DNA of 64,000 bases from a virus. Of the stretch, positions 2,161 through 23,629 are shown one piece after another. The DNA lies in the IMG/VR virus record IMGVR_UViG_3300035682_000017, positions 17,704 through 81,703 of that record. One strand, written 5' to 3'. The translations under genes and the position numbers were made by a program. The notes beneath the pieces were generated by a model. That model was not told where the DNA came from, searched no databases, and worked only from the letters and a program-made list of their open reading frames with translations. Position 1 is the stretch's first letter, and each line of letters starts with the position of its first letter.

Positions 2161-2180
2161 ATTTTTGCTTATATTATATA
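2161..2180 (+). promoter_or_regulatory. Putative phage late promoter (T-tract + TATATTA at 2170-2176)
   Basis: Same core recurs in intergenic gaps at 8594, 11509, 22466 and 29531. Confidence 0.5.
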
Positions 2181-2182
2181 TA

Positions 2183-2212
2183 GTCAGTTATTAACCAAAC
2201 CAACCAACCAAC
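2183..2212 (+). promoter_or_regulatory. 5' leader element GTCAG...AAACCAACC with AACC repeats
   Basis: gtcag at 2183-2187 and aaaccaacc at 2197-2205, directly before ATG 2213. Same bipartite motif at 5476-5493. Confidence 0.55.
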
Positions 2213-5116: not shown

Positions 5117-5162
5117 AAAAGAAGGAGTTAGTCAGGCAACCCCCTGGCTACTCCTTTTTTTT
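5117..5162 (+). terminator. Rho-independent terminator after MCP
   Basis: aaggag-t-tagtcagg / cctggcta-ctcctt stem followed by a T8 tract. Confidence 0.85.
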
Positions 5163-5429: not shown

Positions 5430-5435
5430 ATTAAG

Positions 5436-5469
5436 AAAAGCAGTTCTAATAGTTTAGAACTGCTTTTTT
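5436..5469 (+). terminator. Rho-independent terminator (possibly bidirectional)
   Basis: Perfect 14-bp stem aaaagcagttctaa / ttagaactgctttt, loop tagt, T tract. Confidence 0.85.
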
Positions 5470-5471
5470 AT

Positions 5472-5496
5472 TAAATTTGTCAGTAAACCAACCAAC
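5472..5496 (+). promoter_or_regulatory. TAAATTTG (-7 box-like) plus leader element TTTGTCAG-T-AAACCAACC
   Basis: TAnnTTTG at 5472-5479 just after a terminator. aaaccaacc at 5485-5493 upstream of ATG 5505. Confidence 0.5.
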
Positions 5497-5504
5497 TATT
5501 AATT

Positions 5505-6491
5505 ATGACACAAAATTTAAAACCTGGAAAAGTACGCGTTAAGGCATACTGTGATCCAACAAATGAAAACATGGGTTTAGAAAATTACAACTATGTTGTA
5601 TTTCCAAACACATTTCAAGTAGAAAGTTTAGCGGCAGTTGAACAAAACGGAAAGGTTATTTATTTAACAGGGTTAAATGAATTTGCTCCATTTGTGAAAT
5701 CTATTAAAGATGAACAAAAAAGAACCGCAGTAATTAAAGACATCAGAGAAACTGTTGCATTACTTGAAAGAGAAAGAGGCTTTAATGATATTAAAACCGA
5801 TGACAAAGACTTCTGGGCTAAAGTGCAAACCTTTAAGTCAGACAATGCTGAAGTATTCGGTACAATGAATTTAAGATTAGGAAATGATGATTTAATTTTG
5901 GATACACAAAATTTAGATCACGTGTTAATCATTAAAGCTATTGAAGGTGGAGGTTTTTCACTTGTTGCTTCTTCTTATGAAGATGCTAGAAGATTTGGAA
6001 AAAAATGGTACTTGGATAGACAAATAGATACAGTAGCAAGTAAAATTTCTGTTACTAAATTACGTAACAAAGCTTTATCTATTTTAGCTTCTATATCAGA
6101 TGACAATCCAAGAAAACTATATTACATTGCTAAAAATGCAGATGGAAACAGCATTCAGTATAACAATAGAACATTAGCAGATGTTGTTTATGATAACATG
6201 GATAAATTCATTAATGGTTTAGGTCATGAAGGTGATAAAAAAAGAGCTGCACAATTCTTTATTGATTTGTCTGAATTAAGTAATGAGGAACTTAAATTAA
6301 AAGCTGTTATTAAAGATGCAATTTATTATAAATTTATTGCTTCAAAATCTGATGGCGTTTTATATGAAGTTTCTAAAAATGTCATTATGGGTAGAAATTC
6401 TGCAGAAGTGTTAGAGTTTTTAAAGAATCCAGGTAATGATGATTTATTAGATACCTTGTTAGCTAAGGTTGAAGATGTTTGGTCAAAATAA
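5505..6491 (+). CDS. Conserved crAss-like capsid-module protein, unknown function (328 aa)
   Basis: Good ORF. C-terminal LKAVIKDAIYYKFI..GRN..EVLEFLKNP.N pattern resembles the conserved gene downstream of crAss MCP. Confidence 0.6.
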   Translation: MTQNLKPGKVRVKAYCDPTNENMGLENYNYVVFPNTFQVESLAAVEQNGKVIYLTGLNEFAPFVKSIKDEQKRTAVIKDIRETVALLERERGFNDIKTDDKDFWAKVQTFKSDNAEVFGTMNLRLGNDDLILDTQNLDHVLIIKAIEGGGFSLVASSYEDARRFGKKWYLDRQIDTVASKISVTKLRNKALSILASISDDNPRKLYYIAKNADGNSIQYNNRTLADVVYDNMDKFINGLGHEGDKKRAAQFFIDLSELSNEELKLKAVIKDAIYYKFIASKSDGVLYEVSKNVIMGRNSAEVLEFLKNPGNDDLLDTLLAKVEDVWSK

Positions 6492-10148: not shown

Positions 10149-10189
10149 AAAATGGAGAATAGAGTTTTTCTCTGTTCTCCATTTTTTTT
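10149..10189 (+). terminator. Rho-independent terminator
   Basis: aaaatggagaatagag / ctctgttctccatttt stem with one G-U pair, T8 tail. Confidence 0.85.
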
Positions 10190-12037: not shown

Positions 12038-13519
12038 ATGATTTGTGAAAAAGAAAATAGCTTACCTTGTGATATAAGTTTATGTATCAATCCTGTTAGT
12101 TACTTAATGGGGTTGGTTTATAATGTTGTACAAGATATGGATTCAAGCACCACTACTGTTTATAAAGATGCTTTTGATGCGGTAATGGTTAGTGATGGTA
12201 TTATTTTATCAAATGCTTCTGGTAAATATTGTTGCCCTGATTGTAATACTGAAAATGGTTTTTATTTTTTAGGAGATTTTGCTGAATTTCAAAGTATTGT
12301 AACTTTTGATGGATTAGGTAATGATAAACCTCAACATCATGAATTAGGATTTGATAGAGATAGACTCTTTGGTTGTTGTGTAAATAGTGCATTACAACAA
12401 GATGAACACGTTACTTATAAAGATGATTTGTTTCTTAACACTACTAATAAAGCAGTTTGTTATGGTTACGGTTATCATTATAATTTTGTTTCTATAAGTT
12501 ATCCTGGTTACAATATTGCTAATCCTGTTAATGGTTGGAAAGTTCCAACAGAAGCAGAGGCATTACAATTAGTTAATTATATTGGTGGTAGTGCAGAAGC
12601 TGGTGGTAAACTAAAAGAAAAAAGAGGCGGTTTAAATGCATATCAGCATTGGAGTGGTGGAAACATTGGTGGAATTAATAAATATAATTTTAGTGCATTA
12701 GGTAGCGGTTATATTGATTATTTAGGTGGTGAGCATGATCTTAAACAAGAGTTTAATATGTGGACAACTACAATTGATTCTGCAAATACTACTCAAGCTA
12801 TAGTTTTAAATTTAACTACTGGTCAAACAACTTCTAATTTTATTAGTAGGGATAAACGTGAAGGACTTTCTGTTAGATTAGTAAGAGTTGCTACAGCAAT
12901 TGAATTATTGTTAGCTGACGGTACTACATCTGAAAGTAATCCAACTGAATTATCCGCTTATGTTGGAAATGATGGAAAAGTTTATACTACTACAAAAATT
13001 GGTAATCAAATTTGGTTAGCTGAAAATTTAGCAGAAACTTATTTTTCAAATGGAAGTAGTATTAGTTATGCATCTAATTCTAACATTTGGATAAATATCA
13101 ATACTAACTTTTCAGCTTATATTAAATTTGATGTAAGCAGTTATGATCCAATTGATGTTTTATTAAAAAAATCTCCTTGTTTTGATTTATTTGACAAAAC
13201 ACCTCCTTGTTGTAAAACAAACTTTAATGAAAGTTATCAAAGACTTTTATATGATACTGATTTAGATTTAACTACTTCTGCTAATGATTCTACTGGTTTC
13301 AGTTTAATTGAAGGAAGTAGTTTTAATTTAAGAAGTGGTTTAGGTATTATGTTGGATAGTTTAAAAAGATTGGATCCAAATGTTACTAAAGCTCAAATGG
13401 CTGAATTTTTTCAAGCTTTTTTAGGTGAAGAATCACTAGTAATTAAATGTATTGGATGTGATATTCACATTTATACTGGTGCAGGATATAGAAATTATTT
13501 ACAAGATAAAAACATTTAA
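12038..13519 (+). CDS. Cys-rich structural protein with inserted FISUMP (Fib_succ_major) domain
   Basis: GWKVPT, AGGKLKE, FSALGSGY, GLSVRLVR and DGKVYTTTKIGNQIWLAENL are FISUMP signatures. Confidence 0.75.
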   Translation: MICEKENSLPCDISLCINPVSYLMGLVYNVVQDMDSSTTTVYKDAFDAVMVSDGIILSNASGKYCCPDCNTENGFYFLGDFAEFQSIVTFDGLGNDKPQHHELGFDRDRLFGCCVNSALQQDEHVTYKDDLFLNTTNKAVCYGYGYHYNFVSISYPGYNIANPVNGWKVPTEAEALQLVNYIGGSAEAGGKLKEKRGGLNAYQHWSGGNIGGINKYNFSALGSGYIDYLGGEHDLKQEFNMWTTTIDSANTTQAIVLNLTTGQTTSNFISRDKREGLSVRLVRVATAIELLLADGTTSESNPTELSAYVGNDGKVYTTTKIGNQIWLAENLAETYFSNGSSISYASNSNIWININTNFSAYIKFDVSSYDPIDVLLKKSPCFDLFDKTPPCCKTNFNESYQRLLYDTDLDLTTSANDSTGFSLIEGSSFNLRSGLGIMLDSLKRLDPNVTKAQMAEFFQAFLGEESLVIKCIGCDIHIYTGAGYRNYLQDKNI

Positions 13520-17793: not shown

Positions 17794-18423
17794 ATGGGTT
17801 GTAATGAAGATTTAAAATGTAATGATGACATAAGAGGTCAACGTGGACCCAGAGGTTATCAAGGTGAAAAAGGAATTAAAGGTGATGGAGGTTCTAATGG
17901 TTCTAATGGCCCAGCTGGTCCTGTTGGTCCTCCTGGCCCTGTAGGCCCTGTTGGTCCTGTAGGTCCACAAGGAACTCCTGGTGATAAGGGAGAACCTGGT
18001 GATCCTGGACCTGCAGGACCTCCTGGTACTTCTGGAAATCCTGGTACAGATGGTAATGCTGGTGCTGCCGGTTCAAATGGTGCGGATGGTACTCCTGGTG
18101 ATGCTGGAAAAGATGGAAACTATACTGCTGGTATTTATGATGAGTCATTAGGTGAACAACAACAAGGTGGAACAATCCTTACTGTTTATAATGGTGAAAC
18201 AAATCAACCTGAAAGTAGATTTGAAATTTTAAATGGAATTGATGGAAAATCTGGTAGAGGGGTTGCTGTATTTGTACAAGGTACACAACCAACCGATGCA
18301 GATCTTATTACCCAGTATGATCAAATTCCTGGATTCACTGTACAACAATTAAATATAAGTGGTCTTTTTCAAGCAGACCAACTAAGAGCTGGTGATATTT
18401 GGATTAAACCTGAACAACCTTAA
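17794..18423 (+). CDS. Collagen-like fibre protein (209 aa)
   Basis: About 32 contiguous Gly-X-Y triplets, Cys N-terminus, C-terminal AGDIWIKP. Confidence 0.8.
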
Positions 18424-20745: not shown

Positions 20746-22314
20746 ATGAGTAATAAATGTAATAAATGTAACAGCTTAGTTTGCGATTGCGTAAATGAGG
20801 CATTTGTAAGAAAAGGTCCAAGAGGTAAACAAGGACCTAAAGGTAATACAGGTGTAGGAGTTTCTGTAGCTGGACCACAAGGTATAGAAGGACCTACTGG
20901 ACCGGCTGGACCATCTGGTGTTATAGGACCTACAGGTTTATCAGCTTATCAAATTTGGGTAGCAAAAGGAAACATTGGAACTGAACAAGATTTTTTAAAC
21001 AGTCTTATTGGACCACCTTCTCAACTTCCAGCTGTATCCGTAGGTACTACAACCACGTTAGCAAGTGGTACGCCAGCGTATGTAAATACAACTGGTTCTA
21101 CTGCCAGTAATTCTATTTTTAATTTTGGAATTCCAACAGGACCTGCTGGTGAAAAAGGTGAAAAAGGAGATAAAGGAGAGCCTGGCGCACCTGGTGCAAA
21201 CTGCTTAATATTTAAAAATGAAGCTGGTGCAGTAGTTGTTCCAGGTTCATTTAGAACTCAAGGGGGTGCAAACTTTGCAGATGTAACTACATTGCAATTA
21301 AGTAAAACATCAATGCTTGGTTATTCAGGTTCTGTTGCTACAGCAAATAATGCTGCAGATTGGTTAGCTTCAATTGCTATTGAATCTGTAATACAGTTAA
21401 CTAATGTTAATGATTCAACAAACTTTGGAATTTTTAAAGTAGGATCTAAAACTAATAATGCTTTAGGTGTAACTCTTATTCTTGACTATATTGCTGGAAA
21501 TGGAATTGCTAATGCTACAAATTCTACATTAACAGTTTGTTATAATGTACCATGTATTGCTGAACCAGCAAATGTAAATCCAGACAGTCTTTGTGGGGAT
21601 GATACTGGTGGTAGTGGAGTACCTCTTCCAGTTCCTGGTTCAGGTTGCGGATGTCTTCCAGTTGGATTTTTATCTCCTTTTGCAGGTGCAGTTGGTGCAC
21701 CAGAAGGATGGTTGCCAGCAGATGGTTCAACAAAACTAATTTCTGATTATCCAGCATTAGCTGCTGTACTTGGAACTACTTATGGACCAACTACAACGAC
21801 TACTTTTAAATTACCAAACTTAAATGGTAAAGTTATTGCAGGACCTGGTAATTTTGGCAGTATTGGTCCTGGAGCAATTGGACAAGTTAAAGGAGTTGCT
21901 GATGTTACAACATCTATAGAACTTACGGTTGAAGGAGAATTAGGTGAAGCAATGTTACCTTTACATAAGCATACTGCTGGTACACTAGCTGCTGGTGGAG
22001 GAGGTGCTCACAACCATAAACTTAAACGAGATAATACTGGCGCACTTAGTGATCCTAATAGAGGTACATCCATAGATTTCAAAGATAGTCAAGAATGGGC
22101 TGGTCCTAATTATAATCAAGGAAATGATGATTTTAATGATACTACTAATAACACTGTATCTGCAGTTGCAGATCATACTCACCCAATTACAGGTGAAACT
22201 GGTGAAGCTGGAACAGCTGGTTCACCAGATCCAGTTAGTTTAACTGGAAATACTAGTTTTGATGTTTCGCTTATACAACCAACTTTAGTAATGCGTTATA
22301 TGATTAAATTTTAA
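20746..22314 (+). CDS. Collagen-like tail fibre with phage tail-collar domain
   Basis: Gly-X-Y tracts, GLSAYQIWV..GTEQDFLNSL, collar motif PVGFLSPFAG..PEGWLPADG..YPALAAVLGTTYG..FKLPNLNG, HxH metal motifs, QPTLVMRYMIKF end. Confidence 0.85.
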   Translation: MSNKCNKCNSLVCDCVNEAFVRKGPRGKQGPKGNTGVGVSVAGPQGIEGPTGPAGPSGVIGPTGLSAYQIWVAKGNIGTEQDFLNSLIGPPSQLPAVSVGTTTTLASGTPAYVNTTGSTASNSIFNFGIPTGPAGEKGEKGDKGEPGAPGANCLIFKNEAGAVVVPGSFRTQGGANFADVTTLQLSKTSMLGYSGSVATANNAADWLASIAIESVIQLTNVNDSTNFGIFKVGSKTNNALGVTLILDYIAGNGIANATNSTLTVCYNVPCIAEPANVNPDSLCGDDTGGSGVPLPVPGSGCGCLPVGFLSPFAGAVGAPEGWLPADGSTKLISDYPALAAVLGTTYGPTTTTTFKLPNLNGKVIAGPGNFGSIGPGAIGQVKGVADVTTSIELTVEGELGEAMLPLHKHTAGTLAAGGGGAHNHKLKRDNTGALSDPNRGTSIDFKDSQEWAGPNYNQGNDDFNDTTNNTVSAVADHTHPITGETGEAGTAGSPDPVSLTGNTSFDVSLIQPTLVMRYMIKF

Positions 22315-22351
22315 AGAATGTCACAAAGGTTGGTTTCATGTGGCTGACAAA

Positions 22352-22385
22352 AAAATAGGTCCTGGGGTAATCTGGGGCCTATTTT
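22352..22385 (+). terminator. Hairpin/terminator 1 (GUAA tetraloop)
   Basis: aaaataggtcctggg-gtaa-tctggggcctatttt. Confidence 0.65.
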
Positions 22386-22401
22386 AACCTTTGTATTAAT
22401 T

Positions 22402-22431
22402 ACCCACTAGGAAACTAGTGGGTTTCTTTTT
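22402..22431 (+). terminator. Rho-independent terminator 2 (GAAA tetraloop)
   Basis: acccactag-gaaa-ctagtgggt followed by ttcttttt. Confidence 0.85.
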
Positions 22432-22459
22432 ACAGGTTTAATTTGTATTTTTGGTGGTA

Positions 22460-22478
22460 AATTAGTATATTATTAGAT
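22460..22478 (+). promoter_or_regulatory. Putative late promoter (TATATTA 22466-22472), 6 nt before ATG
   Basis: Follows terminators and precedes a new operon. Same core motif. Confidence 0.55.
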
Positions 22479-22955
22479 ATGGTTAATGATTTAAAAGGAA
22501 ATCGGATTAGAGAAATTAAAGGAAAGGTTATTGAAAAGATAGATGTTAAAAACTTTAATGTTAAATATCCTGAACACAAAGGCTTACAAAAAGAAGATAT
22601 ACTAAAAGTAGTAAAAGTCTTTAATGCTAAAATCATTAGTGAAACTATTAATAACATTTATGGTGTTTCTTTACCACAAAACATTGGAGTTGTTTCAATT
22701 GTAAATAAAGGACCATCAGAAAAAAGACCAATAGATTTTAAAAATTCTTTGAAAGAAGGAAGAGTTATTAGATATAGAAATTGGGATACTGATAATAATA
22801 TCATGGGGATAAGATTTTCACATAGTGGAAAAGGACTTCAACCTAAAAATATGAAGCTGTTTGGATTTACAGCAATAAGACAATTTAAAAGAGAAGCCTC
22901 TAAATATTTTAAAAAAAATTGGCAGAGATGTTTATTTATAACTAAACCACTTTAA
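22479..22955 (+). CDS. IHF/HU-like DNA-binding protein (crAss tail-module type)
   Basis: Basic protein, helix followed by GVSLPQNIGVVSI, and FTAIRQFKR, echoing the HU/IHF fold. Precedes ring/muzzle genes as in crAss-like phages. Confidence 0.6.
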   Translation: MVNDLKGNRIREIKGKVIEKIDVKNFNVKYPEHKGLQKEDILKVVKVFNAKIISETINNIYGVSLPQNIGVVSIVNKGPSEKRPIDFKNSLKEGRVIRYRNWDTDNNIMGIRFSHSGKGLQPKNMKLFGFTAIRQFKREASKYFKKNWQRCLFITKPL

Positions 22956-22957
22956 GA

Positions 22958-23629
22958 ATGACAACAATCGGTGAATGTGTATCAAGACTTCGTAGTAAAA
23001 TAAAAGCAAGAACAGAAGATGCTTTTGTTACAGACCGCTATCTCTATAGTGTATTCATTAGTTATGCTAAAGCTTTAATTAGAAGACAGGACAATGAAAA
23101 TAAAATAATGAGATATGATTCATTATTTGAACTTTTACCAATGGTTGATTTAATTGAAGTTGATAAAGCAGAAGCTAATTGTGCTGGTATTAAAACTGGA
23201 TGCAAAATAATGCGTACTAAAAATAAACTACCAAAAGTATTTCAAGGAAGCTTAGGTCCTATTTTTAGAAGTGTTGGACCTATTGATGGTTCAGATACAT
23301 TTCAACAAATTAATTCTGCCATCTATGTTGCAATGACAAGCTCAACTAATTTTAAATATAACAAGACTCACTACTTTTGGTATAGAAATGGTCATTTATA
23401 TTTTCCAGATATTAAATGGGTTGCTGTTCAAATTGAAGGAATGTTTGAAGAACCTGTAGATAAGTTTTGCAATCTAAATGATGTTGATTGTACAAACATG
23501 CAAGAGAAAGAATTAAATCTTCCAGAGTATTTAATTGCAGAAGCAGAACAAATGGCTTCTCAAGATTTGCTTACACCGGTTAAAATACCTAGTGATACAT
23601 CTGATGATCAACAAAACATACATAGATAA
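22958..23629 (+). CDS. Tail ring protein
   Basis: MTTIGECVSR, IMRTKNKLP, KYNKTHYFWYRNGHLYFP and LPEYLIAE motifs; synteny. Confidence 0.7.
   Translation: MTTIGECVSRLRSKIKARTEDAFVTDRYLYSVFISYAKALIRRQDNENKIMRYDSLFELLPMVDLIEVDKAEANCAGIKTGCKIMRTKNKLPKVFQGSLGPIFRSVGPIDGSDTFQQINSAIYVAMTSSTNFKYNKTHYFWYRNGHLYFPDIKWVAVQIEGMFEEPVDKFCNLNDVDCTNMQEKELNLPEYLIAEAEQMASQDLLTPVKIPSDTSDDQQNIHR

Follow-up and report, generated by a model that had tools for sequence, protein, structure and literature searches.

A conserved hairpin behind a phage tail-fibre operon as a candidate anti-leader RNA for head and packaging genes

Introduction

What is the role of a short hairpin which directly follows the last gene of a phage tail-fibre operon and whose loop is complementary to the leaders of head-module genes located many kilobases away? 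This question is raised by a stretch of 64,000 nucleotides (nt), hereafter the window, of the IMG/VR virus record IMGVR_UViG_3300035682_000017. The window is the right-hand 64 kb of this 81.7-kb single-contig phage record, with 31% G+C; the record is 68% complete. An earlier reading made from the letters only (the sequence-only reading) had noticed the hairpin and proposed a trans-acting small RNA (sRNA) with bipartite complementarity to the leaders of two genes, the scaffold-position gene starting at 2213 and a gene starting at 5505.

Here, we present a comparative analysis of this element and of its complementary sites in related phages. The comparative sequence data support two statements: the hairpin is a conserved RNA structure of the + strand whose loop is the conserved part, and a box complementary to the loop is conserved throughout the clade where translation of the scaffold gene, gene 5505 and a few other genes is initiated. 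With a probability of roughly 0.55, we interpret the element as an anti-leader RNA, embedded in the fibre operon's 3′ untranslated region (3′UTR), which would pair with the box-bearing leaders and most likely repress their translation.

Results

Conservation of the hairpin

The element starts 6 nt past the stop codon of a 522-aa fibre gene and comprises the hairpin P1, a short linker and the intrinsic terminator T1, followed by a second terminator, T2 (Table 1). Near relatives were collected as 22 loci retrieved via a conserved 223-aa gene downstream of the element (48-81% identity). In 22/22 of them the hairpin lies right after the stop codon of the upstream gene and is followed by its own intrinsic terminator and a conserved promoter, which is the order of a 3′UTR-embedded RNA; the upstream gene itself varies and the element is retained.

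Twenty-one of these sequences were aligned (alignment A1). In A1, 99.2% of the stem cells are paired, three of the six pairs show compensatory changes, the second pair is either U-A or U.G, and the GUUGGU columns of the loop are invariant. As a control, the pairing partner was shifted by 1-3 columns, which left pairing at only 10-40%. RNAalifold, applied unguided, recovered the same stem and the terminator, and the loop is unpaired in 18 of 21 single-sequence folds.

Genomes and a distant set of 80 loci obtained by profile search (down to 44% identity) were then searched with a covariance model derived from A1; 60 of the distant loci gave a match. In the alignment of these 60 sequences all six stem pairs show compensatory changes, a count biased towards the structure by the fit to the model, and the loop core GUUGGU(U)U is fixed. 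Whole stems are exchanged under an unchanged loop (GUUACAG/CUGUGAC, AGUUG/CAACU, GUGGAG/CUCUAC), and one clade has a 7-bp stem with two G.U pairs. The seed is accessible and more conserved than the rest of the RNA: GUUGGU does not change, in contrast to every pair of the stem. About half of the sequences contain U.G pairs, which are A.C mismatches on the opposite strand; because of these pairs, the structure belongs to the + strand, i.e. to the RNA of the fibre operon. The positions given in the sequence-only reading for the hairpin and for both leaders proved exact when the window was re-read, and its observation of a seed exposed in the gtcaca/tgtggc hairpin is strengthened by the covariation.

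Among the 20 distant loci without a model match, seven carry the same loop in an entirely different stem (judged by eye), four carry the element further upstream (two strong and two weak matches), six are close kin of the two weak-match loci, and two have little or no upstream sequence. The last one, L328, on a contig that is 27% complete, is still without a match. In some clades (L308, L329, L418, L419) an extra gene of about 300 aa is located between the hairpin-terminator module and the conserved 158-aa and 223-aa genes, so that the element lies about 1.9 kb upstream of the 223-aa gene and not 0.65 kb.

Each of 12 genomes searched (12/12) contains one strong model match. Three complete genomes that were negative under default filters gave a weak match with the same loop when the filters were switched off (E 0.0005-0.003). 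In the present genome the next matches after the element itself are the reverse complements of three leaders; the second best in the genome is a - strand match over the leader of gene 5505 (5432-5501, E 1e-4 to 7e-4).

The two GNRA-capped hairpins described in the sequence-only reading are T1 and T2, both of which have the G+C-rich stem-loop and subsequent U tract of intrinsic (Rho-independent) terminators. P1 is the structure supported by covariation, and it does fold when the RNA stops at T1. In the minimum-energy fold of the longer stretch 22312-22431, a 9-bp helix between 22323-31 and 22386-94 brackets T1 and displaces P1. The same helix is found in L081 and covaries in L082, and these two are the only relatives with two terminators. 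Judged by folds of three sequences (the window, L081 and L082), this helix may act as a gate on the seed that depends on read-through of T1.

Table 1. Features of the 3′UTR element, its candidate target sites and the adjoining genes (window positions unless stated otherwise)
Feature	Position	Strand	Description	Basis
Hairpin P1	22320..22344	+	6 bp; arms gtcaca 22320-22325 / tgtggc 22339-22344 with one U.G pair; loop 22326-22338	covariation, RNAalifold
Loop seed	22328..22336	+	GGUUGGUUU (DNA GGTTGGTTT); core GUUGGU invariant in the family	alignment of relatives, folds, complement of top leader 8-mers
Linker	22344..22349	+	CUGAC(A), single-stranded, between P1 and T1; possible second contact with leader GUCAG	CTGAC or CTAAC in 21/21 aligned relatives
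Terminator T1	22352..22385	+	intrinsic; 15-bp stem, GUAA loop, U tract	fold; helix covaries in all relatives
Alternative-helix strand	22386..22394	+	AACCUUUGU, complementary to 22323-22331; predicted helix hiding part of the seed in T1 read-through RNA	minimum-energy fold
Terminator T2	22402..22431	+	intrinsic; 9-bp stem, GAAA loop, T tract	terminator scan; fold
Leader of scaffold gene (2213)	2170..2212	+	TATATT 2170-75; GTCAG 2183-87; AAACCAACC 2197-2205; more CCAA repeats up to ATG 2213	sequence
Leader of gene 5505	5472..5504	+	TAAATTTG box 5472-79; GTCAG 5479-83; AAACCAACC 5485-93; ATG 5505; terminator 5434-5469 ahead	sequence; terminator scan; homologous leaders in relatives
Predicted 77-aa open reading frame (ORF)	genome C1:12226-12459 (L259:1227-1460)	+	after a terminator; opens the packaging module	GTCAG...AAACCAACCAAC overlaps codons 1-8
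Last gene of tail/fibre operon	20746..22314	+	522 aa, tail-fibre-like; stop codon 22312-14	ORF list; PHROG tail-fibre families
Promoter region of next unit	22432..22478	+	TATTTTTG, then TATATT 22466-71; serves gene 22479	sequence; promoter block conserved downstream of element in relatives

The leader box

The complementarity of the element to the initiation regions of two head-module genes, as claimed in the sequence-only reading, was confirmed by exact matches. The scaffold match ends 7 nt before ATG 2213, and the gene-5505 match (TTTGTCAG-t-AAACCAACC, 5476-5493) lies 11 nt upstream of ATG 5505. GTCAG of scaffold-type leaders follows TATATT by 7 nt, where the transcript is expected to start. 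The 9-mer AAACCAACC occurs four times in the window against 0.59 copies expected, a number reached by 0/100 shuffles; TTTGTCAG by itself is not enriched (2 observed, 4.4 expected). The whole genome contains five copies of the 9-mer: three on the + strand at gene starts, one inverted in the hairpin and one within a coding region. The copy outside the window (genome 12228-12244, together with GTCAG) marks the start of a 77-codon ORF. All three gene-start copies share a common 12-mer and have GTCAG upstream. The copy in the coding region (12111-12119, - strand), which is the fourth of the window, lies inside a 493-aa gene on the non-coding strand and is probably a chance occurrence. The leader of the major capsid protein (MCP) gene (3492) is without a box, though this gene is in one operon with the box-bearing scaffold gene.

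Duplex prediction of the element against 63 leaders of the genome, a check proposed together with the original observation, ranked the scaffold leader best and the gene-5505 leader second. With shuffled elements, the best duplex energy was reached by 1/300 and the second by 0/300. The gain in cofolding (kcal/mol) was -14.2 with the scaffold leader and -8.8 with that of gene 5505, compared with -2.0 to -4.6 for three control leaders.

Across relatives, 80 head-module loci (682 kb) were retrieved via the capsid protein at 66-96% identity. In this set the coding strand has 315 copies of AAACCAA[AC] and the opposite strand 33, with peaks in the scaffold leader and in the leaders of the genes following the capsid gene. 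An ORF start is found within 20 nt of 146 of the coding-strand boxes, 106 of which precede it by 3-6 nt. The three most widespread 8-mers of 595 leaders are AAAACCAA (72/80 loci), AACCAACA (60/80) and AAACCAAC (59/80), with plain A-rich words ranking below, and the hairpin loop is the exact complement of these top leader 8-mers. Complete genomes contain a handful of box-bearing leaders each.

ACCAA[ACT] is present in 64 of 67 distinct scaffold leaders of relatives, at a median of 5 nt before the ATG. Its distance to the ATG has a standard deviation of 1.85 nt and that from the -10 box one of 4.5; since the spacing to the ATG is far tighter, the box is tied to the start codon and not to the promoter. 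Purine runs similar to Shine-Dalgarno (SD) sequences were found in only 2/53 leaders. This near-absence fits an SD-blind host of the Bacteroidia type. For SD-less Bacteroidia, leader structure and sequence are described to tune initiation (PMC6847099).

Co-variation of loop and box

Hairpins, with loops defined by model coordinates, were matched to head-module leaders of the same contigs, giving 64 pairs (56 distinct) of loci located about 20 kb apart. Over the 56 distinct pairs, cognate combinations reach a mean longest Watson-Crick run of 9.93 through the core, and permuted ones 9.40 (standard deviation 0.13). The cognate mean was reached by 0/2000 permutations, with the same outcome when G.U pairs were allowed; as relatedness of the contigs is uncorrected, this result is indicative and not a probability.

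Individual lineages illustrate how the two loci change together. In the L350 lineage the loop is UUUGGUUU and both leaders read AAACCAAA within long A runs, which gives 14 contiguous pairs. Two lineages with the loop GUUGGUUA have a UAACCAAC leader; a clade with the loop AGACCAAC retains pairing through G.U. In the near clade, with the loop GG-UUGGUUU, leaders often read ...CCAACC; those of distant clades with the loop UUUG-UUGGUUU read ...CCAACAAA, which allows up to 13 pairs. Box changes from A to G and from C to U, which preserve wobble pairing, occur without a change of the loop. The initiation regions of the candidate targets hold a conserved seed-complementary site that co-varies with the loop, in few lineages and with no phylogenetic correction. 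The search for compensatory changes among relatives, likewise suggested by the sequence-only reading, was thus productive for the stem (6/6 pairs) as well as for the flanks of loop and box.

Concerning the second half of the complementarity, GCTGACAAA is located past the P1 loop at 22343-22351. Among 35 matched contigs, GTCAG is present in a box-bearing leader in 17 of 20 with a CTGAC tail and in 0/15 with CTAAC. GTTAG occurs solely alongside CTAAC (2/15); in one of these cases, L092, it is at the homologous position and represents an independent event on the capsid tree.

Genome context and affiliation of the phage

According to the ORF list, the large genes of the window are all on the + strand. 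Together with PHROG assignments, the list gives the order portal, 416-aa scaffold-position gene, MCP, small head genes, tail and fibre genes, and giant virion proteins. A terminator scan found strong intrinsic terminators at 5129-5150, 5434-5469 and 10149-10185, which divide the head region into short transcription units. Pfam and PHROGs assigned no function to gene 2213, gene 5505 or the 77-aa ORF. Both fibre genes contain collagen-like GXY-type repeats (GGNCCNNNNGG periodicity; 18013-18098 and 20812-21176).

The label "crAss-like" given to the phage in the sequence-only reading could not be confirmed. The DFDxD motif was not found in the eight large ORFs from 24555 on (24555-64000), and the two giant proteins (2137 and 4109 aa) received no PHROG name. 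A nucleotide search of a phage collection with 21900-22700 gave zero matches. In the same collection the best match of the MCP, and its nearest cultured relative, is that of a Leptolyngbya cyanophage at 26% identity. This cyanophage shows only weak matches to the hairpin model (E 0.03 and 0.7), and its scaffold-position leader is without the box. One 135.9-kb record of the comparison (G052, behind locus L344) has two copies of the capsid gene near its two ends (C1:5336-6949 and 127511-129124) and probably carries a terminal duplication resulting from concatemer assembly.

Several other candidate functions of the locus were rejected. A palindromic DNA operator is excluded by the U.G pairs (two in one clade), which are A.C mismatches on the other strand. 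Hairpin promoters of N4-type virion RNA polymerases occur in several copies upstream of early genes and have a short stem and a 3-nt loop; the one copy per genome (12/12), the loop of 8-13 nt and the terminator right after the element exclude this type. For the crAss-like phage phi14:2, no motif common to the regions upstream of early transcripts is reported (10.1101/2020.03.07.982082). A diversity-generating retroelement was ruled out by the lack of an RVT_1 match in the 81.7-kb record (68% complete) and of a long repeat of the fibre 3′ end. A minus-strand ORF of 11 codons across the hairpin was dropped, its ATG missing in near relatives, as was a minus-strand promoter: a T-rich stretch precedes GTCAG, but there is no TAnnTTTG/TATATT at proper spacing.

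Discussion

Proposed mode of action

The results suggest the following model. Transcription of the fibre operon would stop at T1 or T2, and the last approximately 70 nt of the transcript (about 22316-22389) would form an RNA module consisting of P1 with the exposed seed, the CUGAC linker and the operon's own terminator. This module could work as the 3′ end of the mRNA or, more likely, as a stable 3′UTR fragment, which should be stable because a hairpin closes each end. Its loop would pair with the box AAACCAAC(C), which a few phage genes carry 3-6 nt ahead of their start codons; in the present genome the candidate targets are the scaffold-position gene 2213, gene 5505 and the 77-codon ORF heading the packaging module. 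A duplex of 9-14 bp in the landing zone of the 30S subunit on an SD-less leader would most likely block initiation, by analogy to c4 RNA and icaR (see below), and the linker may provide a second contact where the leader begins with GUCAG. Accumulation of the RNA, pairing in vivo and repression as its effect are what we infer from this arrangement.

Several observations weigh against this model. The invariant loop core has a length of only 7-8 nt, the 60-sequence alignment is biased by its model as mentioned above, and the permutation test ignores kinship of the contigs, the co-variation resting on few lineages. In RNA of the window that extends to T2, part of the seed is predicted to be hidden. 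Among the sequencing runs listed for 20746-23629, no RNA run contains the region, and a single run of unknown kind contains 0.38 of its sequence words. The box keeps its distance to the ATG as a ribosome-binding element would, and leaders rich in A and C are common throughout the clade; for these reasons the box has, or may have, a function independent of the hairpin. It may well enhance translation by itself, in which case the hairpin would be an antagonist of the box. Further difficulties concern the second contact: L097, L125 and L130 have CTGAC without GTCAG, L091 has GTCAA together with CTAAC, and in L125 the tail is the sole difference from close kin. In addition, GTCAG directly follows and adjoins the -10/-7 promoter box in leaders of the gene-5505 type; because of this position it may lie at or before the transcript start and perhaps is not transcribed. 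Of the bipartite complementarity proposed in the sequence-only reading, the nine-nt contact between seed and box therefore appears firm and the GTCAG half, with its exceptions, is better regarded as one possible contact.

Alternative explanations

The hairpin could have a different task at the 3′ end, such as a protein-binding loop, a processing site, a barrier to 3′/5′ exonucleases or an aid to termination, and its complementarity to the box could be incidental or the relic of an inverted duplication of a terminator-promoter-leader segment. The region indeed resembles an inverted copy of the intergenic module of gene 5505 (box, CTGAC, hairpin, T tract), as reflected in the - strand model match at 5432-5501; moreover, the element always adjoins a terminator, and the ATG-anchored position of the box suggests an independent role. 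However, a relic would not retain an invariant loop among phages whose MCPs diverge down to 63% and whose stems differ at every position, nor is it expected that, of 65,536 possible 8-mers, the loop exactly complements the one most conserved in leaders and that the flanks of loop and box co-vary. We regard this explanation as unlikely, though it deserves to be kept in mind. Pairing could also be real and take place in cis or co-transcriptionally, either between the 5′ and 3′ ends of one long late mRNA or with leader RNA kept on the elongating polymerase, where it would enforce termination of the late region. The position of the element immediately ahead of the terminators closing this region, followed by the next promoter, is in line with this, and the best single match in the genome (8 + 9 nt) is the gene-5505 leader, upstream and on the same strand. 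A precedent for pairing of a 3′UTR with a ribosome binding site within one bacterial mRNA is icaR (PMC3868564). On the other hand, strong terminators (5129, 5434, 10149) and further promoters lie between the box leaders and the element, which are not on one transcript without antitermination, and several leaders per genome carry the box. Because these terminators separate the box-bearing units from the fibre operon, action in trans is likelier, and pairing in cis has in our view a small chance.

Least probable is the alternative which the sequence-only reading itself had offered, here taken as a double-stranded DNA motif (GTCAG...AAACCAAC) to which a phage regulator would bind at late promoters and, in inverted form, behind the fibre operon. 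It would account for the recurrence of the same two boxes, once inverted, and for GTCAG at or next to predicted transcript starts; the joint shift of tail and leader box in two lineages would also result from a change in the specificity of a protein. This motif fits poorly with the leader box, whose copies are nearly all on the coding strand (315 against 33) and whose position is set by the ATG and not by the promoter. The spacing between the two boxes also varies, from 1 to more than 15 nt. Furthermore, the inverted copy is part of a covarying stem with U.G pairs, i.e. mismatches on the other strand, and the A-to-G and C-to-U changes of the box keep wobble pairing with an unchanged loop.

Beyond the anti-leader RNA as such, a wider scheme can be imagined in which this large clade of uncultured phages marks chosen head and packaging genes with the AAACCAAC box, as a private tag for ribosome landing that replaces the SD sequence, and the hairpin is the trans-acting anti-tag, so that the end of the tail operon switches the class of late messages and the read-through helix at T1 gates the seed. 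We consider this scheme as a whole speculative and rather improbable. The coupling of tail transcription to head assembly, put forward in the sequence-only reading, is a plausible story only, and a balancing of head against tail synthesis as the purpose of the element would be a guess.

Relation to known regulatory RNAs

A cmscan of 21800-22800 against Rfam with E up to 10 gave six matches, all far below the gathering score, none of them a phage antisense family and none c4. No publication on the element was found in a literature survey in which sRNA reports on crAss-like phages were judged by title. The loop sequence UUGG presumably corresponds to the YUNR U-turn motif of plasmid and phage antisense RNAs. 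The likeness to such loop-initiated antisense RNAs is a seed presented by a short stem; they are cis-encoded and fully complementary, whereas the present element would pair over 8-14 nt and in trans.

The closest parallel among phage RNAs is perhaps c4 RNA of P1 and P7. Its action is described as fold-dependent, with short complementary sequences, probably in loops, which bind around the ribosome binding site and block translation (PMC12197685, citing Citron and Schuster 1990). Both systems share a phage-encoded folded RNA whose loop pairs around the ribosome binding site of the target, which is a prediction in our case. The role of c4, however, is the control of an antirepressor and of immunity in temperate phages, and its target is in its own operon; the present element belongs to an apparently lytic phage, where it occupies the 3′UTR of a structural operon, and has one conserved loop for several candidate targets with a private leader box.

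The second group for comparison is that of 3′UTR-derived sRNAs, of which CpxQ and SroC are examples. Another is CisR, described as a trans-acting sRNA derived from the prtV 3′UTR which acts on CTX-phi mRNA (PMC13250501). The likeness to this class lies in a regulator that is an mRNA end sharing its terminator and in a conserved seed pairing with other mRNAs. The present seed differs in that it is located in the apical loop of a 5′ hairpin and not in a linear Hfq-bound stretch, and the element is encoded by a phage and aimed at the phage's own genes. In icaR of Staphylococcus aureus, a 3′UTR motif is described to pair with the ribosome-binding region and to block formation of the initiation complex (PMC3868564). 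icaR acts within one short mRNA and on the SD sequence, whereas the present candidate targets are on other transcription units and their box is not an SD sequence.

In phi14:2, the host polymerase is described to read middle and late genes from sigma-70-like promoters, and abundant non-coding RNAs are encoded elsewhere in its genome; the available text mentions nothing like the present element (10.1101/2020.03.07.982082). From these known systems the element differs in that it is part of an apparently lytic phage's structural module, presents one invariant seed in its loop, would address several genes via a private start-proximal box, and does so in an SD-less setting. We regard it as a new family of RNA motifs for which base pairing is well supported by comparison.

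Conclusions

Comparative data alone yield an RNA of about 70 nt with a covarying fold, an invariant seed and a small target set marked by a start-codon-proximal box, the targets sitting in a type of host that apparently ignores SD sequences. As a practical aspect, the element is a convenient single-copy marker of this phage clade. To our knowledge, little is known about regulatory RNAs of lytic phages. The finding makes it possible to ask directly how the expression of head, packaging and tail genes is balanced late in infection, and which signal lets ribosomes of SD-less hosts land on highly expressed phage messages.

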